32,000 nucleotides of DNA from Limnohabitans radicicola (GCF_014837235.1 NZ_JACYFT010000001.1:477688-509687); one strand, 5' to 3'. Positions 10,178-26,127 are shown, counted from the stretch's first letter. Numbers and translations are program-made. Notes: generated by a model from the letters alone, not told the origin.

Positions 10178-10795
10178 ATGCTTGACCGTGAAGGCTTTAG
10201 GCCGAACGTCGGCATCATTCTGCTCAACCAGAAAAACCAGGTGTTCTGGGGCAAGCGCATCCGCACCCACAGCTGGCAGTTTCCGCAGGGCGGCATCGAC
10301 CGGGGCGAGAGTCCCGAGCAGGCCATGTTCCGCGAGCTGCATGAAGAGGTGGGGCTCCATCCGGAGCATGTGCGCATCGTGGCCCGCACCCGCGACTGGT
10401 TGCGCTATGAAGTGCCAGACCGCTTCATCCGCAGGGATGCACGCGGTTTTTACAAGGGCCAGAAACAGATCTGGTACCTGCTGCAATTGGTCACGCACGA
10501 CCACCACCTGAACCTGCGCGCCACCGACCACCCGGAATTCGACGCCTGGCGTTGGAACGACTACTGGGTCCCGCTCGATGTGGTGGTGGAGTTCAAGCGC
10601 GGCGTGTACGAAATGGCGCTGACCGAGTTGGCGCGCTTTCTGCCGCGCCAGGATCGACATAACCGCTACCTGCGTGGCGGGCCGCGCGGCCCACGCGAAG
10701 AACAGGAATCGGCAGCAGCCGCCGCCGAGCGGCAGCCCCCCATGCACATGGAGCTGCCACCGGGCGCCAGCTTTGACCCCAACCCACCGGGTTGA
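10178..10795 (+). CDS. rppH: RNA pyrophosphohydrolase (Nudix) with low-complexity C-terminal extension
   Basis: [17 protein letters not shown]...[28 protein letters not shown] is the Nudix box and RppH N-terminus. ATG at 10178. Confidence 0.9.
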
Positions 10796-10879: not shown

Positions 10880-12016
10880 TCAGCGGCTGAGGATCAGGTT
10901 GTCCCGGTGCACCATCTCGGGCTCGGCGGTGTAGCCCAGCAGGTTTTCGTATTCGTGCGAAGGCTTGCGGCACAGCAATCGGGCCTCGGCGCTGGCGTAG
11001 TTGGCCAGCCCTCGGGCGATTTCAATGCCCTGCGCATCGCGGATGGCGATCACATCGCCGCGCGAAAAATCGCCATCGACCCCTGTCATGCCGATCGGCA
11101 ACAGGCTCTTGCCCTCGGTCAGCACCTTGTGGGCTGCGCCTGCATCCACCGTGACCGAACCTCGCAGCTGCAAATGGTCGGCCATCCACTGCTTGCGGGC
11201 CTGTTGCTTGGCCGTTTGCGCCACCAGCAGCGTGCCCATGTTGTCGCCTTGGCACAAGCGAAGCAAAGCATCAGGCTCCCGCCCCCAGGCGATCACGGTC
11301 GATGCACCCGATCCAGCCGCACGTTTGGCGGCCAGGATTTTGGTGATCATGCCGCCCTTGCCAATGCTCGAGCCTGCGCCGCCCGCCATGGTCTCCAGCA
11401 CCGGGTCCCCGGCACGGGCCTCGTGCACAAAAGTGGCTGCCGGGTCCTTGCGCGGGTCGGCGGTGTACAGGCCCTTCTGGTCGGTCAGGATGACCAACAC
11501 ATCGGCTTCCACCAGGTTGGCCACCAGGGCGCCCAGGGTGTCGTTGTCACCGAACTTGATTTCGTCGTTGACCACCGTGTCGTTTTCGTTGATCACGGGC
11601 AGCACGCGGTGCTGCAGCAAGGTCAGCAAGGTCGAGCGGGCGTTGAGGTAACGCTCCCGGTCGGCCAGGTCGGCGTGCGTGAGCAGGACTTGGGCACTGC
11701 CCATGCCGTTTTCGCGCAGTTTGGTTTCGTACATCTGCGCCAGACCCATCTGGCCCACGGCAGCAGCGGCCTGCAGCGCGGGCACTTCGCTGGGGCGGGT
11801 GGTCCAGCCCAGGCGCTTCATGCCTTCGGCGATCGCACCGCTGGAGACCATGACCACCTCTTTGCCCTGCCCCACCAGCAAAGCCATCTGGCGACACCAC
11901 TCACCGATCGCAGCCTCGTCCAGGCCACGGCCTTCGTTGGTCACCAAGCTGGAGCCCACCTTGACCACGATGCGACGGGCATCACGCAAAACGGAAGAGA
12001 GGGCAGGAGTGGTCAT
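10880..12016 (-). CDS. proB: glutamate 5-kinase
   Basis: Start at MTTPALSS (12016). [14 protein letters not shown]-kinase fold and a C-terminal PUA region ([21 protein letters not shown]). Confidence 0.93.
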
Positions 12017-13178: not shown

Positions 13179-13278
13179 TTATCTGAGGGCGATGTCGGAG
13201 AGGACTGATGGACTCGCCAGAGGCCAGAAAGCGAAAAGCCCCGACGGGCGGGGCTGATTCGCTGGAACGGAACCTGGC

Positions 13279-13539
13279 TTAAACGGCCGGGGTCACATTC
13301 ACAGTGTGCTTGCTCAGCTCGCCTTTGACAGCAAACGACACGTGGCCGTCCACCAGGGCAAACAGAGTGTGGTCCTTGCCGATGCCGACGTTGTTGCCTG
13401 CATGGAACTTGGTGCCACGTTGACGAACAATGATCGAGCCAGCGCTGATCAGTTCACCACCGAAAGCCTTGACACCCAGCATCTTTGGCTTGGAATCACG
13501 ACCGTTGCGCGTAGAGCCGCCGCCTTTTTTCTGTGCCAT
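13279..13539 (-). CDS. rpmA: 50S ribosomal protein L27
   Basis: [24 protein letters not shown]...[14 protein letters not shown]. Confidence 0.97.
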
Positions 13540-13551
13540 GACCTATTCTCC

Positions 13552-13863
13552 TCAGGCAGAGATGGCACCGATTTGCAGTTCGGTGAACTGCTGACGGTGA
13601 CCCTGACGTTTTTGATAGTGCTTACGACGACGCATCTTGAAGATGCGCACTTTGTCGTGCTTGCCATGCGCCACCACAGTGGCTTTGACAGTCGCGCCGG
13701 ACACCAGGGGCGTGCCGATCTTCAGGTCTGCGCCGTTGCCGACTGCGAGAACTTGATCGATCACGATTTCCTGGCCAACGTCCGCAGCAATCTGTTCTAC
13801 TTTAATTTTTTCGCCAGCAGCAACACGATACTGTTTGCCGCCGGTTTTTATGACCGCGTACAT
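13552..13863 (-). CDS. rplU: 50S ribosomal protein L21
   Basis: Internal start [14 protein letters not shown] at 13863, 103 aa. The longer ORF upstream is a non-coding extension. Confidence 0.95.
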
Positions 13864-14056
13864 AAATGACCTCTTGAATGGAAGTTTCCCAGGGCTCATC
13901 CCAAGGAACCTGCGATTGTAGCACGGCATGACCTGAATGGCCAGCGAGGGAGCCACCAAGCTGCTGGGGGCCCTGGGCAGACCTATAATCCGAGCCAATT
14001 TAGAGGGTTTTCCCGCCCTCACCCGCACCACAAGTGCTTTCAGCAGGATTTTCAAG

Positions 14057-15374: not shown

Positions 15375-15490
15375 GGGATGACTTTAGAACAATCCCGTTG
15401 ACAGCAAAAGGCCATCCGGTAGCCAACACCCGAAAACCCTGAGCCAGATCAAAGGATGAGCCGAAACCGAGCATCCTGCCTTGAGAAAAA

Positions 15491-15538
15491 TGGTCGGGGT
15501 GAGAGGATTCGAACCTCCGGCCTCTACGTCCCGAACGT
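15491..15538. repeat. distal att repeat (displaced copy of the tRNA-Pro 3' end)
   Basis: tggtcggggtgagaggattcgaacctccggcctctacgtcccgaacgt matches 26051-26098 exactly; identity ends at 15539/26099. Confidence 0.95.
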
Positions 15539-15574: not shown

Positions 15575-15584
15575 TTTTACGTTA

Positions 15585-15606
15585 TGTAGTTTAGTTTGTA
15601 GTTTAT
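15585..15606 (+). repeat. two tandem TGTAGTTTA(G/T) motifs (candidate arm-type integrase/RDF sites)
   Basis: TGTAGTTTAG at 15585-15594 and TGTAGTTTAT at 15597-15606, period 12 bp. Confidence 0.85.
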
Positions 15607-15691
15607 TAAAGGCTGAATGCAAACCAAAGAAAAGACGCTGTCTAAGCTGCAAAAACGTGTCTGTCAGTGTGCCATAAAAGCCTCTACGTTC

Positions 15692-15712
15692 AGCGTCGAT
15701 TTTTAGGACGCT
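15692..15712 (+). repeat. 21-bp palindromic element, copy a: AGCGTC GATTTTTAG GACGCT
   Basis: Perfect 6-bp arms (7 bp with the flanking C/G). One mismatch to copies at 20614-20634 and 20141-20161 (reverse). Intergenic. Confidence 0.9.
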
Positions 15713-15840
15713 GCTACGTCATTGAAGCACAGCAGATGGGCTCTGCTGCCCCCACACAAGCCCTACAGCACGTCGATTGCCGACGCTGTGCTCGCCTCGT
15801 TAAAGGGCTCTGCCATCGACAGCTTGTAGGGTGGTTAGAT

Positions 15841-15872
15841 TAAAAGTGGTGGGGGTTAGGTTCTCCACCACC
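15841..15872 (-). terminator. rho-independent terminator downstream of the 161-aa minus-strand gene
   Basis: On the minus strand: GGTGGTGG-agaacctaac-CCCCACCAC followed by TTTTAAT. Confidence 0.6.
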
Positions 15873-15876
15873 TTCG

Positions 15877-15914
15877 AAAACTGCAGCAGAAATTTTTTGA
15901 GTGCTGCAACCATT
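15877..15914. repeat. about 38-bp CTGCAGCA hairpin repeat, copy A
   Basis: aaaacTGCAGCAgaaattttttgagTGCTGCAaccatt has a 7-bp stem. It aligns in blocks with 19244-19283 (aaaactgcagca / gaaattt / gag / ctgcaa). Confidence 0.7.
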
Positions 15915-15937
15915 TTCACTATGCCTCTCATCCCCAC

Positions 15938-16423
15938 TCACCACTTTTTTGCAGTAGCTATGTTTCTCGCCGAAAAACCCACTTTTTTGGGTGGTTTGAG
16001 CGGATTTGATGGCAACGCTTGGGGCTGTGCCGATGCTGTGGGCGCTGTGGGCGCTGTGGGTTGGGCTGAGGGTAAGGGCTGCTGATGTGCTGTGGGTTGG
16101 GTAGTCTTTGCCGAAAGCTGTTGAGGGGTGGCTGCACGTGGGGGCTGCTGCTGAACACCCACAGCTGATTTCTGTTGCTGCTGTTGTGGGGGTGCTGCTT
16201 TCTTCGGTGGGGGTGGTGGGGGTAAGCGAAGCGAGGGCGCTGCACCCTTAGTCTTTCGTTTGCCACCCTTCAATTTTGCTGCACGTTGCGCCGCTGCTTT
16301 GCGTTCTGCTTCATCGCGTGCTTGCTGATTGATAGCAGCCCACACGTTGTCATTGATGAGCTTCCATAGTGCCATCTGCTCTTCTGCACTTGCAATTTCC
16401 ATCATTCTCATCGCCATCTCCAT
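15938..16423 (-). CDS. hypothetical protein: helical N-terminus, Lys-rich linker, Pro/Gln-rich low-complexity tail
   Basis: 161-aa ORF followed by terminator-like hairpins. The tail contains PPPPPPKKAAPPQQQQQ and PTAPTAPTA. No family recognised. Confidence 0.5.
   Translation of the reverse strand: MEMAMRMMEIASAEEQMALWKLINDNVWAAINQQARDEAERKAAAQRAAKLKGGKRKTKGAAPSLRLPPPPPPKKAAPPQQQQQKSAVGVQQQPPRAATPQQLSAKTTQPTAHQQPLPSAQPTAPTAPTASAQPQALPSNPLKPPKKVGFSARNIATAKKW
16035..16061. repeat. three tandem copies of a 9-bp unit (GCTGTGGGC) inside the P/Q-rich CDS
   Basis: gctgtgggc gctgtgggc gctgtgggt encodes PTAPTAPTA on the minus strand. Unit length is in frame. Confidence 0.85.
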
Positions 16424-16476
16424 TTCTTATATTTATCGTCAAAGCCTTTGGGTGGTGATGCATTAACTGACTTTGG

Positions 16477-16485
16477 TGCTATAGT
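16477..16485 (+). promoter_or_regulatory. candidate extended -10 (TGCTATAGT) for the 2TM/HEPN-like operon
   Basis: TGn-TATAGT lies 65 nt upstream of ATG 16550. No good -35. Motif-level call only. Confidence 0.3.
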
Positions 16486-16549
16486 TGTTGGGGCATTGAG
16501 CTGTCTTTAGCCTCTTGTTAATGTCTTCGAAAGAATGAGGAGTTTGATT

Positions 16550-16759
16550 ATGTCTAAGATTTTTCCAAAATGGATTAGTCCTCGCGCATTTTTTCTTGCT
16601 GCTTTGATTTCTGTTCTTCCTTCTTTTGGAGCTATAAATTTCAGCGGCTTTTCTGCAGAAGTAATTGTTCAGCTATTGCTGCAAGCATTCTTCGGCGGGT
16701 TGTTTTGGGGCTGGATTTTTACGAAATTTCTACCCAAATATTTCGGTAAAAAAGATTGA
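16550..16759 (+). CDS. small 2-TM membrane protein, hypothetical
   Basis: ATG 16550 preceded by GAGGAG at 7-nt spacing. 69 aa with two hydrophobic helices (FFLAALISVLPSFGAI; LLLQAFFGGLFWGWIF). Its stop abuts the next gene. Confidence 0.55.
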   Translation: MSKIFPKWISPRAFFLAALISVLPSFGAINFSGFSAEVIVQLLLQAFFGGLFWGWIFTKFLPKYFGKKD

Positions 16760-16764
16760 ATTGT

Positions 16765-17238
16765 ATGGAGTTAATGCCTGCCGAACTTAGGGCTGAATGG
16801 GCTCCTATTGTTGGTAATTTTATTATCGAGTTTGGAGAATTGGAGTCTGCAATTAGTGAGGTTGTTAGACTGAGTTCAACCCCCAGCCAATTTGAAATTT
16901 TATATACTCTTAACTTTGTTAAGAGGTTGGATTTGGCGGAGGCTGCTCTTGTTGAATGGAATAATCATTCCAAAGAGTTAATAAAAGAAGCTTTTAAGAA
17001 AATAAGAGATGTAGTGGCGAAAAGAAATATTATTGCTCACAATGGTTTTTCCATTAATATTTATGAGTTAGAGGGAGGTGAGACTCGGTATGAGTTTGGA
17101 ATGACGCCTTCGTATAAGCAAAGTAGTATTTGGCTTACTAAAGAGCATTTAGAGCGAGATACGGCATTGCTTGTAGAGTTTATTAAATCAATTATTGAGT
17201 GGATTCCCAAAGACTGCGTTGCAAATAAGGTTAGGTAG
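16765..17238 (+). CDS. hypothetical protein with HEPN-like R-x4-H motif (candidate RNase/toxin)
   Basis: About 157 aa, predicted helical. KRNIIAHNG (R 17023-17025 to H 17038-17040) fits the HEPN RNxxxH signature. Start ambiguous (TTG 16756, ATG 16765 or 16774). Lies in a very AT-rich block. Confidence 0.5.
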   Translation: MELMPAELRAEWAPIVGNFIIEFGELESAISEVVRLSSTPSQFEILYTLNFVKRLDLAEAALVEWNNHSKELIKEAFKKIRDVVAKRNIIAHNGFSINIYELEGGETRYEFGMTPSYKQSSIWLTKEHLERDTALLVEFIKSIIEWIPKDCVANKVR

Positions 17239-17322
17239 GTTTCAGATTTACGACACTCCTTAAACCATACTGAGCTTCCAACAGCCACTTTGCGCGGTTG
17301 ATGTCCTCTGCTTGCACTTGTG

Positions 17323-17373
17323 TTCGAACGAGGACGGTGCTGCCACCGCCCATTCGAACGCGGACGGTAGCAG
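17323..17373. repeat. two direct repeats TTCGAACG(A/C)GGACGGT(G/A).. with 30-bp period
   Basis: ttcgaacgaggacggtgctgc (17323-17343) and ttcgaacgcggacggtagcag (17353-17373), in a convergent intergenic region. Confidence 0.8.
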
Positions 17374-17388
17374 TAAAGCTCAGCAGCT

Positions 17389-17829
17389 TCATTTCTTAAA
17401 GCCACTACGCAGCTTGTTGCTGACAGCGTCAATCTGTGCATCTAAGCTGCCCTCTTCGACAGCTTGCTTGACGATTTCCAACGTGGGCAGCAGCTCATCG
17501 ACGGACGACAGCTCAATGGCATTTTTCCCTTTGCTGATTTCGATGACTTTGGCACCGTAGCGGATTGACAGATTGAGCTTGCCGTCCGCTGTTTTCCACC
17601 ACCACTGTTTCACCTTCTTTGCCGTTTCGATGCTGCGGCGTTCGCCAGTCTCTGCATCTTTTACAGATTTGAATTTGGTAGGTGCATACACACGCCCTTC
17701 GGCTTGTGCTCGTGCCAACTGCATCTGCTCGAACAGCTTTGTGCTCAGCTTGTTGCGACGCTGCTGCGTAGGGGTTTGAGCTGTAGCACGCTTAGCTACG
17801 ACGAATTTGAGGTTTGCGAGTGCAGTCAT
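17389..17829 (-). CDS. hypothetical protein (146 aa, basic, WWW motif)
   Basis: GGAG lies 6 nt upstream of the ATG. RRNKLSTKLFEQMQLA...KVKQWWWKTADGKLNLSIRYGAK...AVEEGSLD resembles uncharacterised proteins I recall from proteobacterial integrative elements; no family name asserted. Confidence 0.6.
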   Translation of the reverse strand: MTALANLKFVVAKRATAQTPTQQRRNKLSTKLFEQMQLARAQAEGRVYAPTKFKSVKDAETGERRSIETAKKVKQWWWKTADGKLNLSIRYGAKVIEISKGKNAIELSSVDELLPTLEIVKQAVEEGSLDAQIDAVSNKLRSGFKK

Positions 17830-17843
17830 TCAATGCTCCAAAA

Positions 17844-17869
17844 AAGTTGTTGTGTATTGAATGTAGTTT
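17844..17869 (+). promoter_or_regulatory. partial island-end motif plus TGTAGTTT in a divergent promoter region
   Basis: AAGTTGTTGtgtATTGAA immediately followed by TGTAGTTT (17862-17869), between divergent genes starting at 17829 (-) and 17969 (+). Confidence 0.6.
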
Positions 17870-17968
17870 CAGAGCTTGGCGATGGACAACCGAAAAAGGC
17901 TGCATCGTGTGGCTCTTTTCTCACACCGAAAATTCGTCTCCTTTTATTTGGTTTTGCTAAATAGCTGT

Positions 17969-18496
17969 ATGAAGCCAACAGCAGAACACGTCCGAAATTT
18001 CCTCAACGAGCACAGCCAACACATCACGCATTGGGCAGTGGCACACACGCCGTTCCACACCTACAAAGCAACACCGCAGCAGCTCGAAAGGATGAAGCAC
18101 GAGGCACAGAATCAGTGTCGATTTTTTCGACGCTCGTTCAGCCAATTTCTCTATCAAGCAAAGGCACTCCGCAAACCCGAAATCTACAGCCCACTACTCA
18201 TCACAACCATCGAAGGCGTAAAAGCATCTCCATTCACACAAGACACCATCCACTTCAATTTCGCAATAGGCAACGTCCCACGCTGCATCAGCACTGACGA
18301 GCTACGGCAAGTGTTCGAGCATTGTTGGGTTGATAAGGCAAAGCTCAGCGGCAAGAACTTATGGCTGCAAGCTGCAGACTGCAGCCGCAACACGCATTGG
18401 CTCAACTACATCACCAAAGAAGCAGAGATAGGCAACATAGACACGTGGGATTTCCAAAACACGCAAATCCCACACGTCGCACTCGCAGCAGACTGA
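17969..18496 (+). CDS. hypothetical protein, possibly HUH/Rep-like (YagK/YfjJ / inovirus Gp2-like layout) with a degenerate HUH
   Basis: 175 aa from ATG 17969; alternative starts are TTG 17876 and ATG 17882. The order PLLITTIEG ... IHFNFAIGN ... WLNYITKE resembles Rep motifs I / II (H-U-H, here H-F-N) / III (YxxK). Weak, motif-level only. Confidence 0.4.
   Translation: MKPTAEHVRNFLNEHSQHITHWAVAHTPFHTYKATPQQLERMKHEAQNQCRFFRRSFSQFLYQAKALRKPEIYSPLLITTIEGVKASPFTQDTIHFNFAIGNVPRCISTDELRQVFEHCWVDKAKLSGKNLWLQAADCSRNTHWLNYITKEAEIGNIDTWDFQNTQIPHVALAAD
18114..18134 (+). repeat. 21-bp palindromic element, copy c: AGTGTC GATTTTTTC GACGCT (inside the Rep-like CDS)
   Basis: Two mismatches to the copy at 20614-20634. 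Encodes QCRFFRR in the plus-strand gene. Confidence 0.8.
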
Positions 18497-18556
18497 AGTT
18501 AGCTGTGCAGTTCCCACAAGCCCACGCAGATGATGGGTAGTGCTGTCGCTTTGATG

Positions 18557-19183
18557 TTATTTCTGAGACTTTGCAGAAGATAGATGCATTGACTGATGCT
18601 CCCAAATTAAATCAAGCACCGCTTTGTCTGGCTTGCAGATAGATGGCTTGCCTACTGAGGTGAATATGACAGCTCGCAAGTGTTCGCAGTCCTTCCGACT
18701 TTGAATTCCTTCATTGAAGAAGCCAGACTTTTGGATGTTTTGTGTCCAATCATATTGTCCTTGTAGTCCGATGAGGAATGTTGCTGATTCACCGTGCTGT
18801 AGCTTGTGTGGGAGTTGGGGATTTCTAACAACAGAGTCAGACGTAGAGACGTCTTGTATTGCCCATCGTTTCTTTTTGAAAGGCAAACTCAAGCACCAAG
18901 CAACATTCACAATAGTCGCTGGTGTTTCACCTTCATTGACAGCATTGAATGTTAGGTATTCTGGTGCTTTACCTTGCTGTTGATACCAGACTATGACTCT
19001 GAGAGAGCAAGAAATCTTTAGCAAAGGAGATGGACGTCGATTGGCAAGGAATAGGCTCACTACAACTGCAGCGAGAGTTCCAACGGCGCTTCCAATTTGG
19101 GCGTAATCAACGAGTGTTTGAGGATAGAAGCTTGGCTCAGTCATCATTCGTATGTGTTGTGTGTGGTTATAGACTTTATACAT
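18557..19183 (-). CDS. hypothetical membrane-anchored protein (single N-terminal TM)
   Basis: 208-aa ORF with TM helix IGSAVGTLAAVVVSLFLA followed by a beta-rich-looking domain. Weak SD. No family recognised. Confidence 0.5.
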   Translation of the reverse strand: MYKVYNHTQHIRMMTEPSFYPQTLVDYAQIGSAVGTLAAVVVSLFLANRRPSPLLKISCSLRVIVWYQQQGKAPEYLTFNAVNEGETPATIVNVAWCLSLPFKKKRWAIQDVSTSDSVVRNPQLPHKLQHGESATFLIGLQGQYDWTQNIQKSGFFNEGIQSRKDCEHLRAVIFTSVGKPSICKPDKAVLDLIWEHQSMHLSSAKSQK

Positions 19184-19243
19184 CTACATCCGTAGTGGTG
19201 GGTAAAAATCACCATACAGACGAAAAAATACCCTATACCTAAA

Positions 19244-19283
19244 AAAACTGCAGCACAGAAATTTGAGGACTGCAAACCCAATT
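19244..19283. repeat. about 40-bp CTGCAGCA repeat, copy B
   Basis: aaaactgcagcacagaaatttgaggactgcaaacccaatt aligns with 15877-15914. On the minus strand it is followed by a run of 7 T. Confidence 0.65.
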
Positions 19284-19425
19284 CGAGCTGCAAGCACGCA
19301 GCATCACGCAGACGCAGCAAAACACGCTACAGCACGCTTTTAGGGGCGCGTGCAGCGTTGGGTAGCGAGTAGGGTGCTAAATAGCTTGTAGGGCTTGTTT
19401 TGCTCAGTGGCGCTGCTGCCACACG

Positions 19426-19456
19426 AAACTACATAAAAGTAGGGTTTTCTGTAGTT
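19426..19456. promoter_or_regulatory. inverted pair of TGTAGTT(T) motifs upstream of the small recombinase gene
   Basis: AAACTACA (19426-19433) and TGTAGTT (19450-19456), about 110 bp upstream of ATG 19569. Confidence 0.6.
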
Positions 19457-19568
19457 CTTGCATAACACGTTGAATTTATTGAGATTTTTGCACGTGCCTT
19501 TTTCGGTTGCTCTTTGAAAACAAAGAAAACAAACTGCAGCTCTGTATTTATTTGATTTGGAGCAACAG

Positions 19569-20141
19569 ATGGCAAAAGCAAAAACACTCAGCAGCACAGA
19601 GCTTCGTCGTGTGCTCGACTACATCGCAACACGCAAACACGCAGCACGCAATAGGGCGACGCTGCTACTCACACATTGGGGCGGAATGCGAGTAGGGGAA
19701 GTGGCAGCACTACGCTACTGCGACGTGCTCAACAGCGACGGCACAGTGAAGGACGAAATCAACTTGAGCGCCGAACAGACGAAGGGCAAGCACAGCAGAA
19801 CGGTGTTTATCAGCGGCAAGCTACGCAAAGAGGTTGCCGCTTACATTGCTGCTCATCCGATGAAGGACGGAGAGCACGCTCTTTTCTACACGCAGAAGAA
19901 TCCCAAACGAGGATTCACAGCCAACACGCTCACACAATACTTTCTGCACCTCTACCGCAATGTGGGTATCGACGGCGCAAGTAGCCACAGCGGACGCCGC
20001 ACGTTTGCCACTGTGCTCAGTTCGAAGGGCGTGGGCATACGTGTGCTGATGCGTGCAATGGGACATCGCAACATCAGCACCACTATCGGCTACGTGGATG
20101 CATCGGACGATATGCTGCGGAAGGCTGTTGATTTGGTGTGA
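19569..20141 (+). CDS. small tyrosine recombinase, catalytic domain only, FimB/FimE-like size and layout
   Basis: ATG 19569 has GGAG 7 nt upstream. 190 aa with a complete catalytic set: R (GMRVGE), HxxR (HSGRRTFAT), H and Y (GHRNISTTIGY). The HAARN...LLL...G.R..E pattern resembles FimB. Confidence 0.8.
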   Translation: MAKAKTLSSTELRRVLDYIATRKHAARNRATLLLTHWGGMRVGEVAALRYCDVLNSDGTVKDEINLSAEQTKGKHSRTVFISGKLRKEVAAYIAAHPMKDGEHALFYTQKNPKRGFTANTLTQYFLHLYRNVGIDGASSHSGRRTFATVLSSKGVGIRVLMRAMGHRNISTTIGYVDASDDMLRKAVDLV

Positions 20142-20161
20142 GCGTCCCAAAAATCGACGCT
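20141..20161 (-). repeat. 21-bp palindromic element, copy d (reverse orientation): AGCGTC GATTTTTGG GACGCT
   Basis: Plus strand reads AGCGTCCCAAAAATCGACGCT; with flanks it forms a 9-bp stem (GTGAGCGTC/GACGCTCAC, 20138-20164). The stop codons of both convergent genes (20139-20141 and 20161-20163) lie within this extended stem. Confidence 0.9.
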
Positions 20162-20907
20162 CACAACTCACTGTTGGGGAACTGCCCTTTCGCTGTATTG
20201 GCAATGATGGCACGTGCTTGCTTGACGTATCGACTCACAGTCATTGTCATAGTGGCGTGCTTTTTACGAGTGTCATAGGCGTTGTCCCACTTGTGCGGCA
20301 TTGCATTGGGCACGAGTTTGAGACTTTCGCCGATTGCCCATAAAGGCTTGCGCTGCTCTTTGGGTTGGGCATCGTTGGCAGCAACAGCGTCATAGACATC
20401 GAGCATCACCTTTAGGCTGTGCTGCGTGAAGTTGCGATGCAGAGGGTAGCGTGCTGTGCTTGAAGCTGTCTGCAGCGACTTTCGCCCACGTTTGCCCTTG
20501 TGCTCCGTCTGCAACAAGTCAGCGAACTTCTTCTGCAGATGCCGACGCCCCAAATCCATATTGACAGCGACGAACAAGACGTTGCAGCCCCAACGCTTGT
20601 TCATCTCCGCTGCAGCGTCGATTTTTTGGACGCTTAGCTCCAATGGCTCTTCGGCGAACAAATAGTCGCCCTTGTTGTTAGGTGCTCCCCACCAGCTGCG
20701 GAAGTCATCACTACGCACGTCGCCGAAGTCCGCATACAGCTCAGCAAGCTCGCCAACACCCCCACGCTCACAGCAAGCAAGGTAGTCAGCGTTCCTTCGC
20801 AGATATGCCCACCACCAATAGTAGGGGCTGCGCTGCTGCAGATGTATGGGCGATGGCTTGTGCTTCGTCCCAATCAGCGGATGGATGGCTAAGAACTTTT
20901 TGCGCAT
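20161..20907 (-). CDS. putative transcriptional regulator-domain protein (N-terminal SPYYWWWAYLRRNADY motif)
   Basis: 248 aa. The N-terminal aromatic-rich xYLRRNxxY motif resembles the WEFLRRN-type motif of uncharacterised regulator-domain proteins from mobile elements (recalled, not searched). The C-terminal 150 aa is unassigned. Confidence 0.55.
   Translation of the reverse strand: MRKKFLAIHPLIGTKHKPSPIHLQQRSPYYWWWAYLRRNADYLACCERGGVGELAELYADFGDVRSDDFRSWWGAPNNKGDYLFAEEPLELSVQKIDAAAEMNKRWGCNVLFVAVNMDLGRRHLQKKFADLLQTEHKGKRGRKSLQTASSTARYPLHRNFTQHSLKVMLDVYDAVAANDAQPKEQRKPLWAIGESLKLVPNAMPHKWDNAYDTRKKHATMTMTVSRYVKQARAIIANTAKGQFPNSEL
20614..20634 (+). repeat. 21-bp palindromic element, copy e: AGCGTC GATTTTTTG GACGCT (inside the 248-aa CDS)
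   Basis: Exactly 7 in-frame codons (SVQKIDA on the minus strand), placed right after the N-terminal domain. Inverted relative to copy d, which lies 452 bp away. Confidence 0.9.
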
Positions 20908-20926
20908 CGCAAGATGTTATCAGCTA

Positions 20927-20963
20927 ATTCGCTGCGAATACGTTGCTGCCTAAAAAATAGGCA
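20927..20963. promoter_or_regulatory. two short palindromes in the divergent promoter region (candidate operators)
   Basis: ATTCGC-t-GCGAAT (20927-20939) and TGCCTA-aaaaa-TAGGCA (20947-20963), between gene starts at 20907 (-) and 21058 (+). Confidence 0.4.
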
Positions 20964-21057
20964 AAGAGGCGCATACTAACACTTGTGCTGAGGGACATAA
21001 CCAAACAAGTCAAGCAGCACGTTTTATCAACTCTCTTTATTTCAAAAGGAAATCAAA

Positions 21058-21885
21058 ATGGCTAAATTTTCTAAAGCTCAGTCTGCTGCAATGGCAATCG
21101 CAACCAACGCAAATGTCAAAGCAGTAATCGAAGAGGCAAACAAGCTGTCAGTGCAGCGTGAAAAGTTCGAAAACGAAGAACTCGCACGCAGCAATAAGGC
21201 TCTGTATGCAATTCTCGAAAAGGTATATGGGTTGTTTAATAAAGCAGTCAAAGATGGCTGTATTAAAGAAACGGCGAAGGAAATGCGTTCGATGCTGAAA
21301 GAGCGTGGCGTTAAAGTGCAGAGCAATACGCCAGCCCTTACTTGTTTCGTTCGCTTTGTTTTTAACAGCGACAGAAAGCGTGCATACAACTACGCAAGCA
21401 CGCTGATGGCAGCAGTAGATGCAGACATCAAGCCCGAAAACCTTGCTGCTTTTATTGAAGGCAGCAATGGAGTGGAGGAGTGCAAAAAGGCATACAAGAT
21501 GAAAGACGAGACAAAGCAGCGAGTTGAGGCTGTAGCTGCAGCAAGCGTCGATGTAATGGACATTCTTAAAACGATGCCCTCTGCAGCCAACATCACTCTG
21601 CCAAATGCAAGCGTCGATTTGAGCGACGGTGTGGATTTCGCATTCATCGTTGCTCGTAGTGTCGGCAACGGCAAATTCGAACTTCTGCGTGCTGTGCCTA
21701 AATCGACGAAGGCTATGCAAACTGCTGCTGTTAAAGAGCTTGCTAAAAACCTAATCGAAGTCGCAGCCAAAGCACAGACTGAAACTAAGGAGCAGAAAGT
21801 AAAAGCGACTACTGAAAAGGCAGTCAAGTCAATTTCTGCTAAGTCTGCTGCAAAGATGACACTGAAAGAGTTGGAAGCAGCGTGA
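21058..21885 (+). CDS. hypothetical protein (275 aa, helical, Ala/Lys-rich C-terminus)
   Basis: AGGA lies 8 nt upstream of the ATG. Co-oriented with the downstream AAA+ gene. No family recognised. Confidence 0.6.
   Translation: MAKFSKAQSAAMAIATNANVKAVIEEANKLSVQREKFENEELARSNKALYAILEKVYGLFNKAVKDGCIKETAKEMRSMLKERGVKVQSNTPALTCFVRFVFNSDRKRAYNYASTLMAAVDADIKPENLAAFIEGSNGVEECKKAYKMKDETKQRVEAVAAASVDVMDILKTMPSAANITLPNASVDLSDGVDFAFIVARSVGNGKFELLRAVPKSTKAMQTAAVKELAKNLIEVAAKAQTETKEQKVKATTEKAVKSISAKSAAKMTLKELEAA
21610..21630 (+). repeat. diverged copy of the palindromic element: AGCGTC GATTTGAGC GACGGT (inside the 275-aa CDS)
   Basis: Shares the exact 11-mer AGCGTCGATTT with copies a, d and e. The right arm has one mismatch. 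Confidence 0.6.
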
Positions 21886-21943
21886 GCAATATGTGGGGTG
21901 CTGCAATGCACTCCACCTTTAATTAAATTATTTGGAGGTTATT

Positions 21944-22591
21944 ATGGGCAAGATTGTTGATACTGAAAGCAAATATCGTCCTCGTTCGCTTGACGAGTTT
22001 GTTTTCCCTAACAAGCACGTTGAGGAAGTTGCAAAGGCGTATGGTAGTGGTGAAATAACTCGTCCGCTGATTTTGAGTGGAACGAATGGCACTGGTAAAA
22101 GTCTCTTGTCAGAGCTAATACCGCAGCAGATTGAGGGATTTGAACCGCAAATCAATCGAGTGCGTTCGTGTGATTTGAATAGCAGCAAAGAAATCTACAG
22201 TCAATTTACACGCAACAAGCAATTCGACAAGCTATTCACTCCCTACAACCAACGCTTTAGCTACAACATCATTGAAGAAGTGAATTTCGATACCAAAGCA
22301 AGGGACGCTTTTCGAGTAGTGCTCGATGAGTATAGGGGGGTAGATATGACGATTATGACTACGAACGAGATAGGGAAAATTGACATTGGTGTTCGTAGTC
22401 GATGTGAGACGCTGCATGTGCCACCGTGCGAACCACAAGTGTTTTTCCCTCGTGCCAAAGCCATTATCGAAGCTGAGGGCTACAGCATAGACGACGACGC
22501 CCTAATAGCTGCGTTGGATGCTGTATATGACGCCAAGCCAGATAATCGGCGCTACTATCAGACAATCGACGAGATACTGCGTAAAGCGTAG
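21944..22591 (+). CDS. AAA+ ATPase, RFC/clamp-loader-like, truncated (no collar domain)
   Basis: GGAGG lies 5 nt upstream of ATG 21944. KYRPRSLDEFV (clamp-loader N-terminus), Walker A GTNGTGKS, Walker B-like IIEEVN, sensor-1 TTN and an SRC motif (VRSRCE). Only 215 aa. Confidence 0.75.
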   Translation: MGKIVDTESKYRPRSLDEFVFPNKHVEEVAKAYGSGEITRPLILSGTNGTGKSLLSELIPQQIEGFEPQINRVRSCDLNSSKEIYSQFTRNKQFDKLFTPYNQRFSYNIIEEVNFDTKARDAFRVVLDEYRGVDMTIMTTNEIGKIDIGVRSRCETLHVPPCEPQVFFPRAKAIIEAEGYSIDDDALIAALDAVYDAKPDNRRYYQTIDEILRKA

Positions 22592-22615
22592 TCTATAACG
22601 TCAATTTAATCGACA

Positions 22616-23062
22616 CTAAAAGCCCGCCTTGTGCGGGTTTTTTACCATTATGTTGGTATTTCCTTGATTTACAAAAAGATGCTCCACCAATTCAGCAAAT
22701 TCCTCATCATTCAGATAAGACGGAAGAAATTTATACTCCTGCAAATCTTTATTCATAGGCGTTATGTCGATAAGTTCGCCGCTGACCATTCTAACTATAG
22801 AGTGTGATACAAATATTACGAAAGGGCTTGCTACGGCATCAACGCAAATCCATCCTCTTATCGGATTTGCATTTTTATTTATATTGCAATACTCATCTAC
22901 ATTGTCGTGACAGTGGTTTTTAGTAGCCGAAAAACTTTCATCATCAACGCACCGCTTAACTATCAATTGAGCCTCTGATATTTTTGATATCAAAAATTTC
23001 CCGTAATCCTCAATCTGTCTTTGCGTGCAGCAACCTTTTGCAAGCCCTTCATACCTCAGCAT
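22616..23062 (-). CDS. hypothetical small protein with an ordered Cys...His...Asp pattern (possible papain/transglutaminase-like thiol hydrolase)
   Basis: 148 aa from MLRYEG. Its ATG overlaps the upstream TGA by 1 nt (TGATG). NHCHDNVDEYC ... PIRGW ... VSHSIV ... GELIDITP has spacing reminiscent of a C-H-D triad. Speculative. Confidence 0.5.
   Translation of the reverse strand: MLRYEGLAKGCCTQRQIEDYGKFLISKISEAQLIVKRCVDDESFSATKNHCHDNVDEYCNINKNANPIRGWICVDAVASPFVIFVSHSIVRMVSGELIDITPMNKDLQEYKFLPSYLNDEEFAELVEHLFVNQGNTNIMVKNPHKAGF
22618..22643. terminator. rho-independent terminator for the AAA+ operon, overlapping the 3' end of the convergent CDS
   Basis: AAAGCCCGC-cttgt-GCGGGTTTTTT. The hairpin also encodes the last residues (NPHKAGF) of the minus-strand gene. 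Confidence 0.75.
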
Positions 23063-24447
23063 CACTGCCACTTTTGATAGCTATCCGTTATAGTTGGATG
23101 CTTTGAAGACAGACTCTTTTTTAACTCTGCAACAAGCTCGTCGCTTGCGTATATCTCATTCATATTCATCTGCTTTTGGAAAAAAGTGACATTATGTTTG
23201 GCGTCTGACACGTTTGTCGAGGCTATTACCGCCCAAGCATGCGCATATATTTTATTCGCGGCCACACCCTCTCCCTTCCAATACAGCGACGAGAGTGAGT
23301 GTTGAGCCTTTGCACTACCCAAATATGCAGCCTCTCGCATCAGCTTAAAGGCATCCTCCAGCTTTCGCTCTTTTCCGTATGTTCCGTTATAGCTAATATT
23401 CGCGAGTTCATAGATTGAATTGGCGTCGCCTTTGTTAGCCTTTGCCTCCAACTCCCTATACGCCAATGCATTATGTCCCAGCATTTTATCGTTTACCGCT
23501 TTGGACTTAAGCGCCGTAAATCTCTCTTCTATATATTTCGCCTCTGCTCGTTTGATATCACCCTCTGATTGAGCCAAAGATTTCGCCCAAACACCTTTAT
23601 CTTTTCTATTTGACTCGATTTCCTCTAATGCAGTAGCATAAAGCAAATTAATCTCTTCATTGGATAGATCATGTACTTTGACGTCGGGCTTACTCGAATC
23701 ATTTAATGCATCACCTACCTTCGATTCGAATTTGTCGCGCTCCTCGCCAGTAGAGATTGCCGAATACGCATCTTCCATAAGTGGGATTTTATTGGGCTGC
23801 AATTTATTAAAGCCAGCATTCCCGTTAGATAAATCCCTCAATCCCGCTTGACTTGACTCTTCAGTTTTTGCCTTACCGAGCATAACGATAATTCCCCATA
23901 GCACCGCTGGAAATACTATCAAATTTGCTATTATGAACTGCACTATTTTTTCATATCTTATTTTCAACCCAGCCAGCGGAAAACTAATCAATTCATTAAA
24001 AATTCCCGTCAAGCCAATGCCAATGGAAATCATTAAGATGAGGATAAGGGCAGATTGAACTTTTGATTTGTATTTCTGCCTCAACCTCTTCGCAAAATAA
24101 AAAGCCGCTCCGAAGCCCAATATGGAGGCTATTAATACGGGTATGAATGCACTCATCAAACTCACCTCCTCAATATTTTTGCCCACATGCGTAGAATCTT
24201 TTCCCACTACTGCAGATGCAGACATGCCCTTTGACATAGCTTCGTTATAGGCGACGAATCCGCAGGCATACCCCCCACTGGGAAGTGGTATCGGAGCGTA
24301 ATATGATTCCACTCCGCACTTCCATGAATCCTTGACAAAGAATATTTCTGGATATTTTTTAATTGCTTTATTCAAGGCTTCGGCTTCAGTTACATTGTCA
24401 TTAACTTTTGCCGAATCACCATTTGGTAGTGGTAAGTATTTCGCCAT
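23062..24447 (-). CDS. 3-TM membrane protein with C-terminal Sel1-like (SLR/TPR) repeats
   Basis: 461 aa. TM helices LMSAFIPVLIASILGFGAAFYFA, ALILILMISIGIGLTGIF and IVQFIIANLIVFPAVLWGIIVML. SLR consensus in GSAKAQHSLSSLYWKGEGVAANKIYAHAW. Lowest-GC part of the window. Confidence 0.7.
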   Translation of the reverse strand: MAKYLPLPNGDSAKVNDNVTEAEALNKAIKKYPEIFFVKDSWKCGVESYYAPIPLPSGGYACGFVAYNEAMSKGMSASAVVGKDSTHVGKNIEEVSLMSAFIPVLIASILGFGAAFYFAKRLRQKYKSKVQSALILILMISIGIGLTGIFNELISFPLAGLKIRYEKIVQFIIANLIVFPAVLWGIIVMLGKAKTEESSQAGLRDLSNGNAGFNKLQPNKIPLMEDAYSAISTGEERDKFESKVGDALNDSSKPDVKVHDLSNEEINLLYATALEEIESNRKDKGVWAKSLAQSEGDIKRAEAKYIEERFTALKSKAVNDKMLGHNALAYRELEAKANKGDANSIYELANISYNGTYGKERKLEDAFKLMREAAYLGSAKAQHSLSSLYWKGEGVAANKIYAHAWAVIASTNVSDAKHNVTFFQKQMNMNEIYASDELVAELKKSLSSKHPTITDSYQKWQ

Positions 24448-24456
24448 TTACAGCCT

Positions 24457-25884
24457 TTACTTTCTTTGTCTTTTGCTCTGCAACATCTCAATATTCATCT
24501 CACCTTCTAAGTGGGACGCATAGAAACGCTCAATCATTTCCGTTGATGTGCGTGCGTTGCGTGCGAGTGTGAGCAAGTCCAAACCCTCGCCATAAAGCAA
24601 ACGGTACATTATGCAAGTGTGTCGTAGGCTGTAAAGGCTGCGCTCTTCCCCACGTGCCCCTTCTGCAAGCCCACAGTGAGCAAGCAAGACGCTGAACTGA
24701 CGCTGTAGTTGTGTCAGTGCTGCACCCCTACGCTTTTCAATCTGTTCCTTTGTGTCCGCTGCAGACGTGCGCCCATACGAGGGCAGAAACACGTAGTCCT
24801 CTGCTGTCGCTCTATTCTTCCGCTTGTCGTCGCTCCAATGCAGCGCCTTCTGCCGACGGTAGTAATGCACAGCAGCAGCCATCGACACAATAGGCTTGTC
24901 GTGCTTCTTGCTTGTGGGCAGCGACATACGCAGATAGGTATGCACGCCCTCAATTACCTCAATGTGCTTGTGCTGCATCCACTTGATGTCCGTTGGGCGT
25001 ATGAAGCTGTTCGTCATAAAGACGATGAGGTTCCGCAAGTCCTCTGTCATCTCCACACGCCGCAGCAGTTGGCTCGCTGCAATCTTCTGCTGTAGTGCCT
25101 TCTGTGCCGCAGCACGTGGCTTGTAGGTGGAGGGCTGTCGTTGGGCTGTGAAGATTTCCTCTTTGCCGTTGGCATCGACGAACTTGCGTATCTCCCACGT
25201 TTGCCCACTGAGCTTGCGTGCTGCACTCCACAGCTTGCGGTATTCCTTTGTGTTGAACCAACCGCGCGGTGCATCCACCTTTTTGACTTTGGGGAACTGC
25301 GGCACAGCTTCGATGTAGCCCCTGCGCTGTGCATAGCCCAACGTCTTGCGGACAAGCCCCAAATAGTTGCTGATGGTGGGTGCTGTGAGCTTGTCGGCAC
25401 TGAGCTTGTTGATGAACTTCTCAATGACGAAGTAGTCGATGCTCTTCAAGTCGTAGCTGCGGAAGTAGGGCAGCACTTCCTTCTGCAGCCGATACCTATC
25501 GTTCTGCTGCATCATTGCCGACATCTCACCGCGCTGCACCTTTGCGTCTTGCTGTTCGAGCAAAGCCGCAGCGCACATCTCAAAGTCTGCACGACTGTTG
25601 AGCACCAGCCCTTGTCGCTGCTTGTAATTGACTTCGTCGTAGAAGTCTTTGGCGAACTCGATTGCACGCCGCTTGTCTGTTTCCTTTGTGCTGCGACGAA
25701 GGATTTTTCCGTCAGCGTAGTAGCGCACCCACCAAAAGGGCGACGCTGCAAGCTGATAGACAACGAGCTTCTTTGGATAGTTGGGAACGTGCGTGAGGTT
25801 GAGGGCAGAAGTGCGATGCTTCGTCGCACCACCGTCGATTTGCACGACGCTGAGAACTGCCTTCTTTGCTGCTGCACGTGCCAT
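24457..25884 (-). CDS. int: tyrosine-type site-specific integrase (island integrase)
   Basis: 475 aa. C-terminal catalytic region (FIRPTDI..., LYSLRHTCIMY, ...MIERFYASHL). N-terminal arm-binding-like WWVRYYADGKILRRSTK. Located next to the tRNA target. Confidence 0.9.
   Translation of the reverse strand: MARAAAKKAVLSVVQIDGGATKHRTSALNLTHVPNYPKKLVVYQLAASPFWWVRYYADGKILRRSTKETDKRRAIEFAKDFYDEVNYKQRQGLVLNSRADFEMCAAALLEQQDAKVQRGEMSAMMQQNDRYRLQKEVLPYFRSYDLKSIDYFVIEKFINKLSADKLTAPTISNYLGLVRKTLGYAQRRGYIEAVPQFPKVKKVDAPRGWFNTKEYRKLWSAARKLSGQTWEIRKFVDANGKEEIFTAQRQPSTYKPRAAAQKALQQKIAASQLLRRVEMTEDLRNLIVFMTNSFIRPTDIKWMQHKHIEVIEGVHTYLRMSLPTSKKHDKPIVSMAAAVHYYRRQKALHWSDDKRKNRATAEDYVFLPSYGRTSAADTKEQIEKRRGAALTQLQRQFSVLLAHCGLAEGARGEERSLYSLRHTCIMYRLLYGEGLDLLTLARNARTSTEMIERFYASHLEGEMNIEMLQSKRQRK
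25831..25851 (+). repeat. diverged copy of the palindromic element: ACCGTC GATTTGCAC GACGCT (inside the integrase CDS)
   Basis: Arms have one mismatch to the consensus. The spacer begins GATTT. Confidence 0.5.
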
Positions 25885-25975: not shown

Positions 25976-26005
25976 ATTTGTAGTTTAGCTTAAACTAAAC
26001 TACAA
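25976..26005. repeat. inverted pair of TGTAGTTTAG motifs (12-bp arms, 6-bp spacer) in the tRNA-proximal arm
   Basis: TTTGTAGTTTAG-cttaaa-CTAAACTACAAA, between the integrase start and the tRNA. Confidence 0.9.
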
Positions 26006-26023
26006 AACAGAGCAATCGAGTTG

Positions 26024-26046
26024 CTAAGTTGTTGATTTCATTGAAG
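26024..26046 (+). repeat. 23-bp island-end motif, right copy
   Basis: ctaagttgttgatttcattgaag has 21/23 identity to 15552-15574. Confidence 0.85.
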
Positions 26047-26050
26047 AAAT

Positions 26051-26127
26051 TGGTCGGGGTGAGAGGATTCGAACCTCCGGCCTCTACGTCCCGAACGTAG
26101 CGCTCTACCAGGCTAAGCTACACCCCG
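26051..26127 (-). tRNA. tRNA-Pro (anticodon CGG)
   Basis: Reverse complement CGGGGTGTAGCTTAGCCTGGTAGAGCGCTACGTTCGGGACGTAGAGGCCGGAGGTTCGAATCCTCTCACCCCGACCA folds as a cloverleaf. Anticodon loop TTCGGGA, T-loop GGTTCGAATCC, encoded CCA. Confidence 0.95.

Follow-up and report, generated by a model that had tools for sequence, protein, structure and literature searches.

Dispersed 21-bp palindromes of a tRNA-Pro genomic island in Limnohabitans radicicola: candidate binding sites for an island-encoded protein

We studied a family of 21-bp palindromes in a 32,000-nucleotide stretch of the Limnohabitans radicicola genome (GCF_014837235.1, NZ_JACYFT010000001.1:477688-509687), which is referred to as the window and whose positions are counted from its first letter. 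A preliminary description of this DNA had noticed the palindromes in both intergenic and coding sequence and had offered three roles for them. All motif copies are inside a 10.6-kb segment with a G+C content of 42-54%, in a host whose G+C content is 60-68%. A 58-nt direct repeat, with copies at 15481-15538 and 26041-26098, marks both borders of the segment and consists of the 3' part of tRNA-Pro(cgg). The tRNA gene occupies 26051-26127 on the minus strand, its 3' part overlapped by the attachment (att) repeat at 26041-26098, and the repeat at 15481-15538 is a copy of that part at the island end. The segment is a genomic island integrated in tRNA-Pro. A 475-aa integrase, INT, is encoded on the minus strand at 24457-25884. 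The plus strand encodes AAA219 (21932-22591), an RFC/clamp-loader-like AAA+ ATPase, and its usual neighbor p275 (21058-21885), a 275-aa protein of no known family that is our best candidate for a site-binding factor. The minus strand encodes p248 (20161-20907), a conserved island protein likewise of no known family. REC194 (19557-20141, plus strand) is a 194-aa tyrosine recombinase composed of the catalytic domain only, with PF00589 covering residues 10-184; it aligns end to end with FimB/FimE-type models and has the catalytic residues. The remaining genes are for a DUF6641 protein (17389-17829, minus strand), for p175, a 175-aa open reading frame (ORF; 17969-18496, plus strand) with no database match, and for cargo of low G+C content at various positions.

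Searching the window with AGCGTCGATTTTTNGGACGCT at up to three mismatches returned exactly four copies, against 0.00 expected from 100 dinucleotide-preserving shuffles, and reproduced all coordinates of the four near-identical copies listed in the preliminary description. Site a (AGCGTCGATTTTTAGGACGCT, 15692-15712, plus strand, no mismatch) is intergenic, with its center about 198 nt from the island-end att repeat. Site c (AGTGTCGATTTTTTCGACGCT, 18114-18134, plus strand, two mismatches) is inside the 175-aa ORF and is conserved in the related loci L001, L047, and L048. Site d (20141-20161, minus strand, no mismatch) is located between the convergent stops of REC194 and p248. It exactly fills the 19-nt gap between the two stop codons, has one base in common with each, and its palindrome extends to TGTGAGCGTC/GACGCTCACA. 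Site e (20614-20634, plus strand, no mismatch) covers codons 92-98 of p248 (SVQKIDA). Sites a, d, and e differ solely at position N, as had been reported, and the 11-mer AGCGTCGATTT does occur four times, including at 21610, with 0.02 expected.

Two further copies had been called diverged, and a repeat finder places both in the same family as the main four. Site f (AGCGTCGATTTGAGCGACGGT, 21610-21630, plus strand) is inside p275 (SVDLSDG), and site g (ACCGTCGATTTGCACGACGCT, 25831-25851, plus strand) is at the 5' end of the integrase gene, 33-53 nt in, its center about 223 nt from the att core. Both copies exist, but site f is not a decayed one, given its conserved position and the synonymous constraint on it. 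A search based on the motif core added a good copy that had been missed, site 22597 (AACGTCAATTTAATCGACACT, 22597-22617, plus strand), at the 3' end of the AAA+ gene, where this gene and a 151-aa ORF have convergent stops on either side of the site. It borders a variable cargo region and has equivalents at 7987 in L001, 2747 in L045, and 3371 in L046. The same search added a weak copy inside p275 (AGCGTCGATGTAATGGACATT, 21544-21564, plus strand), 66 bp ahead of site f, and L048 has the same pair at the same distance. The window hence contains at least seven sites, or 7-9 over the 10.6-kb island. A possible degenerate variant with GTC-N7-GAC spacing (ACGTCGATTGCCGACGCT, 15770-15787, plus strand), read from the sequence, is of uncertain status. 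The heptamer CAGCGTC/GACGCTG occurs 21 times in the window (6.0 expected); the island accounts for 14 of them, where 11 had previously been counted. The hairpin GCACGC-N10-GCGTGC at 19332, formerly regarded as related, occurs once with 0.35 expected by chance and so has no evidential weight. The island (15634-25852) is enriched in isolated half-sites (CGACGCTG / CAGCGTC) as well. A 26-nt repeat (..GGGCGACGCTGC) with a half-site is present in the 5' parts of both recombinase genes, at 19640-19665 and 25724-25749.

The island belongs to a family. We collected 125 related loci, 123 from scans of genome and metagenome collections and two via contigs with p248 homologues; p248 has 760 homologues and no Pfam family. 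The loci are mostly from freshwater Betaproteobacteria (Comamonadaceae, Polynucleobacter, Limnohabitans, Methylophilaceae, and Oxalobacteraceae). Their prevailing gene order is INT, AAA219, p275, p248, REC194, and DUF6641, and the islands are 8-19 kb long and inserted in tRNA-Pro, Phe, Met, Lys, Cys, Arg, or Leu. In these loci, the window motif recurs or gives way to relatives, such as GTCGTTTAAAACGAC, GTCCTTTAAAAGGAC, GCGTCGATTTAATCGACGC, CGTCCAGTTGCTGGACG, and GCGTCAAATTTTTGACGC, all of which have in common the core GTC-N9-GAC and an A/T-rich center. The window's 21-bp repeat is a local dialect of the family-wide recognition site GTC-N9-GAC. The first 43 loci and the window together have 124 such palindromes, with 3.7 expected. 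The symmetrized logo of 281 unique sites reads A-n-Y-G-T-C-S-W-T-T-W-A-A-W-S-G-A-C-R-n-T and carries information over all 21 bp, including the symmetric center TT-W-AA. The site pattern demands GTC/GAC or GTN/N'AC and therefore misses divergent dialects, and another motif may be in use in some of the distant loci that appear site-free, e.g. the alphaproteobacterial L034, L035, and L038.

The placement of the sites is conserved as well. Forty-three percent of the 281 unique sites are within 25 nt of an ORF stop codon, compared with 8% of sequence positions. Positions are kept down to 28% p248 identity. The p248 stop codon is overlapped or directly trailed by a site in most related loci, and sites also occur inside p248 and, in other lineages, upstream of it. 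Sites are likewise conserved behind the AAA219 and DUF6641 stops, in the divergent region between p275 and p248, and in or close to the 5' end of INT. Most other lineages have a GTC-N9-GAC site in the p275/p248 divergent region, where the window has a different palindrome, TGCCTA-AAAAA-TAGGCA, at 20946-20962. Relatives also have sites in tandem, as pairs spaced by 34-42 bp and triplets spaced by 41-47 bp, arrangements that fit cooperative binding and are typical of it. In the six loci with a clear G+C contrast, the core span contains 29 sites, whereas the host flanks, totaling about 62 kb, contain none, which is not the distribution of a generic genome-wide REP element.

Near the island ends, the offset of site a from att is also occupied by a site in L001 and L048, and that of site g in L001, L047, and L048. 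The two offsets, about 198 and 223 nt, thus hold together in the tRNA-Pro lineage (the window, L001, and L048), with one of the two in L047. Intasome arm sites were considered for these copies and rejected, as att-proximal sites of other lineages are found only in L005, L118, and L087, at differing offsets, and not in L008, L017, L019, L033, or the rest.

Sites also stand at the edges of exchangeable cargo. Five relatives have an "empty" p248/REC194 junction with an identical 19-nt gap. Occupied junctions consist of a site, a ribosome-binding site, a gene for a 112-aa protein (MNFYFSAKVW...), and then a variable gene. The 112-aa gene is the commonest cargo after the site at the p248 stop (L001:10784-11122, L045:5542-5880, and about 30 other loci), and its ribosome-binding site begins at most about 10 nt from the site. 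The window does not have this gene, so its junction is of the empty kind. An integron-like cassette model was tried and rejected, since occupied hotspots have a single site each and no sites separate the cargo genes that are exchanged.

We then inspected the copies inside genes. Wherever a p248 homologue (68-100% identity) keeps the peptide SVQKID(A/T), its codons at site e are fixed as AGC/AGT GTC CAA AAA ATC/ATA GAC GCT/ACT; the leucine codon beside the site uses five synonyms in the same homologues. In L063, the two arms have changed together (AGT...ACT, a T-A pair), and in L004 the arms read ACC GTC...GAC GGT (a C-G pair), with serine replaced by threonine and alanine by glycine in the protein. 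The paired arm changes are thus compensatory, and in both loci they alter the protein. L059 and L064, both of which are without p275, keep the peptide (SVQRID) in entirely different codons and have no site, hence the peptide does not dictate the DNA. Synonymous diversity is 0.30 in the site e codons versus 0.47 in the rest of p248 (p=0.017). At site f, it is 0.11 versus 0.43 in p275, the lowest of 165 windows along the gene (Mann-Whitney U test, p=5e-4). With diversity this low at sites e and f, synonymous positions do not vary freely there. These comparisons support constraint on the in-gene copies at the nucleic-acid level across reading frames. The preliminary description had proposed selection at the level of DNA or of RNA structure. 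The DNA part is borne out by the frozen codons and compensatory arms, and the RNA part is not supported, given the absence of a G-U bias and the central symmetry.

Which protein goes with the sites was assessed in the 64 loci that have enough flank, with at least two sites near p248 as the criterion and Fisher tests. Sites are found in 48 of the 51 loci with AAA219 and 3 of the 13 without it (p=5e-7), and in 49 of the 55 with p275 and 2 of the 9 without it (p=8e-5). REC194 (48/60 when present, 3/4 when absent) and DUF6641 (31/39 and 20/25) show no association (p=1.0 for both). When only sites inside p248 or at its stop were counted, the fractions were 52/74 with p275 and 2/9 without it (p=0.0075), and the same retest for REC194 gave p=0.48. 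Five loci (L059, L021, L026, L123, and L125) keep REC194, p248, and DUF6641, lack p275 and AAA219, and have no site; L064, which also lacks the pair, has chance-type matches only. Sites persist in four loci that have p275 without AAA219 (L067, L002, L066, and L007). The site subtype, scored as GCGTC arms and GTCGA inner arm, correlates with p275 identity at rho 0.64-0.76, with AAA219 at 0.64-0.68, with p248 at 0.55-0.60, and with REC194 at 0.09-0.30. Reciprocal decoupled cases exist because modules have been exchanged between islands. L118 and L120, at 44% identity in p248 and 50% in p275, have window-type sites, whereas L072 and L073, at 59% in p248 and 31-33% in p275, do not. Across the loci compared, the presence and the dialect of the sites follow the p275/AAA219 pair and not the 194-aa recombinase, which is the best-conserved core gene and has no link to the sites. 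The small recombinase, the 248-aa protein, and the 175-aa protein had been put forward as the binders to examine; the comparative data favor p275 and the neighboring AAA+ ATPase instead.

The p275 family comprises 886 clusters at 50% identity, with no known domain and no Pfam match to its members. For p248, no informative match came from PDB, Pfam, NCBIfam, PHROGs, or PADLOC, whether searched by sequence or by profile. The AlphaFold2 (AF2) models of p248 (pLDDT 70) and p275 (pLDDT 73) are mediocre, and Foldseek found no match to either below E=1 in PDB and BFVD. The most conserved segment of p275, NTPALTxFVRYVFNSDRKRAYNY (residues about 90-113), has a basic start and is modeled as a pair of helices connected by a short turn. 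As a first guess, it may be the recognition element.

In our view, the palindromes are dispersed sites at which a factor encoded by the island, most likely p275, binds double-stranded DNA, and we give this reading about an even chance of being correct. Among the three roles originally offered, dispersed operators or centromere-like sites fit best. The recognition site would be the 21-bp palindrome with its invariant GTC...GAC core, 12 bp apart, and its A/T-rich center. It would be bound by a p275 dimer on duplex DNA, and AAA219, the usual partner of p275, would assist by loading or remodeling. Most sites are placed where a 21-bp palindrome costs least or matters most, i.e. exactly between convergent stops, shortly after the stops of core genes at cargo edges, in the 5' part of the integrase gene, and in the codon-fixed p275 and p248 genes. 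The bound protein may act on the whole element, with the sites as operators or roadblocks that jointly control INT, p248, the p275 gene, and the cargo downstream of site d. It may also, or instead, organize the excised circle for maintenance, as in the KorB-OB and ParB-parS networks of plasmids. We infer both the binding by p275 and its effect from comparative sequence evidence.

Several points weigh against this reading. A DNA-binding domain was not found in p275 by searches of Pfam, NCBIfam, PHROGs, PADLOC, and PDB (sequence and profile) or by Foldseek on its AF2 model (pLDDT 73). The association is partly trivial because some sites are inside the p275/AAA219 module, and the module-free retest is weaker (p=0.0075). 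The association tests also ignore phylogeny, and the p275-negative loci represent about 4-5 lineages. L025, L031, and L042 are p275-positive and have few or no sites under the pattern used, and the close relatives L047 and L049 have lost the site at the p248 stop. The window has no site in the p275/p248 promoter region, and therefore simple autoregulation is not evident here. Most sites are at the 3' ends of genes and not at promoters, which is unusual for operators.

The same binder might serve another function. If the sites were replication iterons, p275 would be an origin-binding initiator, the AAA+ protein a helicase or clamp loader, and the outlying copies would serve for titration or handcuffing. 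This is the main alternative, possible though unlikely. The AAA+ gene adjoins that of p275, two sites 66 bp apart are within the p275 gene where synonymous constraint is strongest, and an excising island of 8-19 kb could plausibly replicate. Polynucleobacter islands also have att-proximal site triplets. However, the window has no tight cluster of three to four or more sites by an A/T-rich unwinding region; sites are spread over the whole 10 kb and at gene ends, and most sites in the family are dispersed. The AAA+ protein is clamp-loader-like and not a DnaC/IstB-type loader or initiator. No primase, helicase, or known Rep is among the island proteins scanned, no known initiator domain was found, and none of the 125 loci is a circular, episomal contig.

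A bolder idea, which we regard as improbable, is that p275 founds a new class of sequence-specific DNA-binding proteins acting with an RFC-like AAA+ ATPase at dispersed palindromes. It might then be an ATP-driven analogue of the CTP-dependent ParB/KorB clamps that silences or organizes the island, or it might be a DNA-recognition subunit that guides REC194 to module boundaries in a new module-shuffling system.

Recombination at the sites has been considered from the outset. Under this explanation, they would be 7-7-7 core sites for the 194-aa recombinase, with p275 possibly giving DNA recognition, and modules would be inverted or exchanged as in shufflons or integrons. The inverted arms and A/T-rich 7-bp center resemble a lambda-type core site, site d abuts the REC194 stop codon, and REC194 has its catalytic residues and a full-length alignment to the FimB/FimE-type invertase models. 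The window and L001 align in blocks at 82-91% nucleotide identity; their homology breaks off precisely at site d and no more than 4 nt from site 22597, and past these points the cargo differs. The site-flanked block AAA219-p275-p248 is inverted relative to REC194 in some lineages. These breaks and the block inversion are equally compatible with recombination and with the presence of sites at every module boundary. Against the recombinase-target role, at least seven loci keep the recombinase and have no sites, and the subtype does not track REC194. Occupied cargo hotspots have a single site on the p248 side, with none at the far end or between cargo genes. No recombinant junctions were seen, and comparison of near-identical islands revealed no inverted segment other than a host-flank inversion. 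The 7-7-7 geometry does fit a recombinase core site, but the center is often palindromic, and it differs between sites a, d, and e in what would be the overlap region. A mismatch in the overlap region normally blocks strand exchange. Many sites are perfect palindromes and hence have no polarity. We consider a recombinase-target role quite improbable.

An RNA function has still less in its favor. The sites could form hairpins that stabilize mRNA 3' ends or attenuate read-through, as REP-like elements or weak bidirectional terminators. Consistent with this are their proximity to stop codons, their location at occupied junctions between the p248 stop and the next gene's ribosome-binding site, and the folding of 41-nt windows at sites a, c, and d at -15 to -18 kcal/mol, with z-scores of -3.5 to -5. 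Site 22597, however, does not fold, and no U tract follows the sites. A consensus terminator scan gave 17 hits, not in excess of the 12.4 obtained from shuffles, and no copy scored in its own right, though two of the hits touch copies (21612-21628 within site f and 18103-18119 overlapping site c). A canonical GC hairpin with a T tail, belonging to the cargo genes themselves, stands right beside the 22597-type site. Imperfect arm pairs in transcribed orientation include 37 G-T and 49 A-C, so a sense-strand G-U excess is missing. The symmetry covers central bases that are unable to pair in a hairpin, which suits a duplex-bound dimer better than a hairpin loop. Conserved copies in the middle of coding sequences and the dependence of the sites on p275 also argue against this explanation, which we hold to be very improbable.

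It is scarcely credible that the palindromes are selfish or generic repeats of the REP/MITE kind, or hairpin origins nicked by an HUH Rep protein (the 175-aa ORF). They are short, palindromic, and multicopy, and this ORF has the motif order of HUH-type Rep proteins by eye (LLITTIEG, IHFNFAIG, NYITKE). However, the positions of the palindromes are orthologous across islands down to 28% protein identity, the host flanks examined (about 62 kb) have none, no RAYT or transposase is present, and the "loop" has no conserved nick motif. The ORF is accessory, with a presence in only 7 of 126 sequences, whereas most sequences have sites.

Other features of the island and its relatives are as follows. 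The cargo ORF at 16756-17238 (37% G+C) has weak HEPN/Csx1-like matches (Pfam E=1e-3, PADLOC E=5e-4) and may be of the abortive-infection type. A second intergenic repeat, AAAACTGCAGCA..AAATTT..GAG..CTGCAA, occurs at 15870-15911, downstream of a 161-aa gene near site a, and at 19237-19280, upstream of the recombinase gene; a promoter or operator function, unconnected with the 21-bp palindrome, is possible. Repeats of the GTTATGTAGTTTAGTTT type at 15581-15597 and, inverted, at 25992-26008 flank the att core at both island ends and resemble integrase arm-type sites. A third copy of this type is at 19420-19436, upstream of the small recombinase gene. In Polynucleobacter, a tandem array of cargo segments follows tRNA-Phe (L005:10941-20726, also L016:880-1450 and L009:3110-3190). 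The segments have no integrase, and repeats of the tRNA 3' end (16776, 18970, 19847, and 20310) delimit them. Three of them (at 11108, 16979, and 20456) start with a 115-140-bp composite repeat that holds three different GTC-N9-GAC palindromes. They look like cis-mobilizable or decayed islands accreted at one att site. In L048, a metagenome contig with a near-identical island, host genes of the window's non-integrase flank (10206-10685 and 13225-13873) are inverted on the integrase side (L048:1-3637), which suggests a chromosomal inversion or a second insertion context.

These results give a large family of integrative islands, 8-19 kb long, a defined cis-element and a candidate trans-factor. 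The islands are abundant in freshwater Betaproteobacteria, use at least seven different tRNA genes for insertion, and appear not to have been described before. The literature searched contains no description of the islands, p248, p275, DUF6641, or the motif, with DUF6641 and motif strings returning only vector sequences. Searches with p275, p248, and DUF6641 by tblastn against phage and plasmid collections, and a scan of IMG/VR, found no relatives other than weak p248-like matches on three Bradyrhizobium plasmids. Because the sites mark the edges of cargo-swap hotspots, they provide a handle for annotating islands and locating cargo. If p275 is the binder, its whole family gains a function.

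Among known systems, REP/BIME elements are similar in being short palindromes just past stop codons, often between convergent genes. The island sites differ from them in being restricted to the island, as judged from the flanks of six loci, in having conserved in-gene copies, and in lacking a RAYT and a G-U bias. Core sites of tyrosine recombinases (lambda attP with its 7-7-7 layout, fimS, and attC) likewise have inverted arms around a short A/T-rich spacer, and in the island a recombinase gene of FimB/E size abuts a site and sites border cargo, a resemblance in shape only. Unlike such core sites, the palindromes neither co-occur nor co-vary with REC194, do not bracket cargo in pairs, show no recombinant junctions, and have spacers that differ within one island. 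In lambdoid origins, dyad-symmetric iterons are O-protein sites, four in tandem inside gene O. The island also has palindromes of about 19-21 bp inside the coding sequence of the candidate binder, with an ATPase gene adjacent. However, p275 contains one or two sites and not four in tandem, most copies are elsewhere in the island, and no adjacent A/T-rich unwinding element was identified there.

The KorB OB network of IncP plasmids (RK2), ParB-parS, and the dispersed centromere sites of N15 are short palindromes present in many copies on one element. Some copies are far from promoters or inside genes, they are read by a protein that the element encodes, and variant sites track variant proteins. 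The palindromes cannot be assigned to the KorB/ParB systems, because no ParB/KorB domain (ParB N-terminal or helix-turn-helix) was detected in ten island proteins with Pfam or in overlapping sets of ten with PHROGs, NCBIfam, and PADLOC, and no ParA-type partner ATPase is present. The sole island ATPase is the RFC/clamp-loader-like AAA+ protein, in the place of a ParA/IncC Walker ATPase. The island site is also longer, 21 bp with a GTC-N9-GAC core instead of a 13-16-bp palindrome, and sites cluster at gene 3' ends. By analogy, the dispersed KorB-OB/ParB-parS network nevertheless appears to be the closest functional counterpart. Like it, the island has short palindromes dispersed in 7-9 copies over 10.6 kb, copies inside genes, and a site dialect that tracks the identity of the candidate protein.

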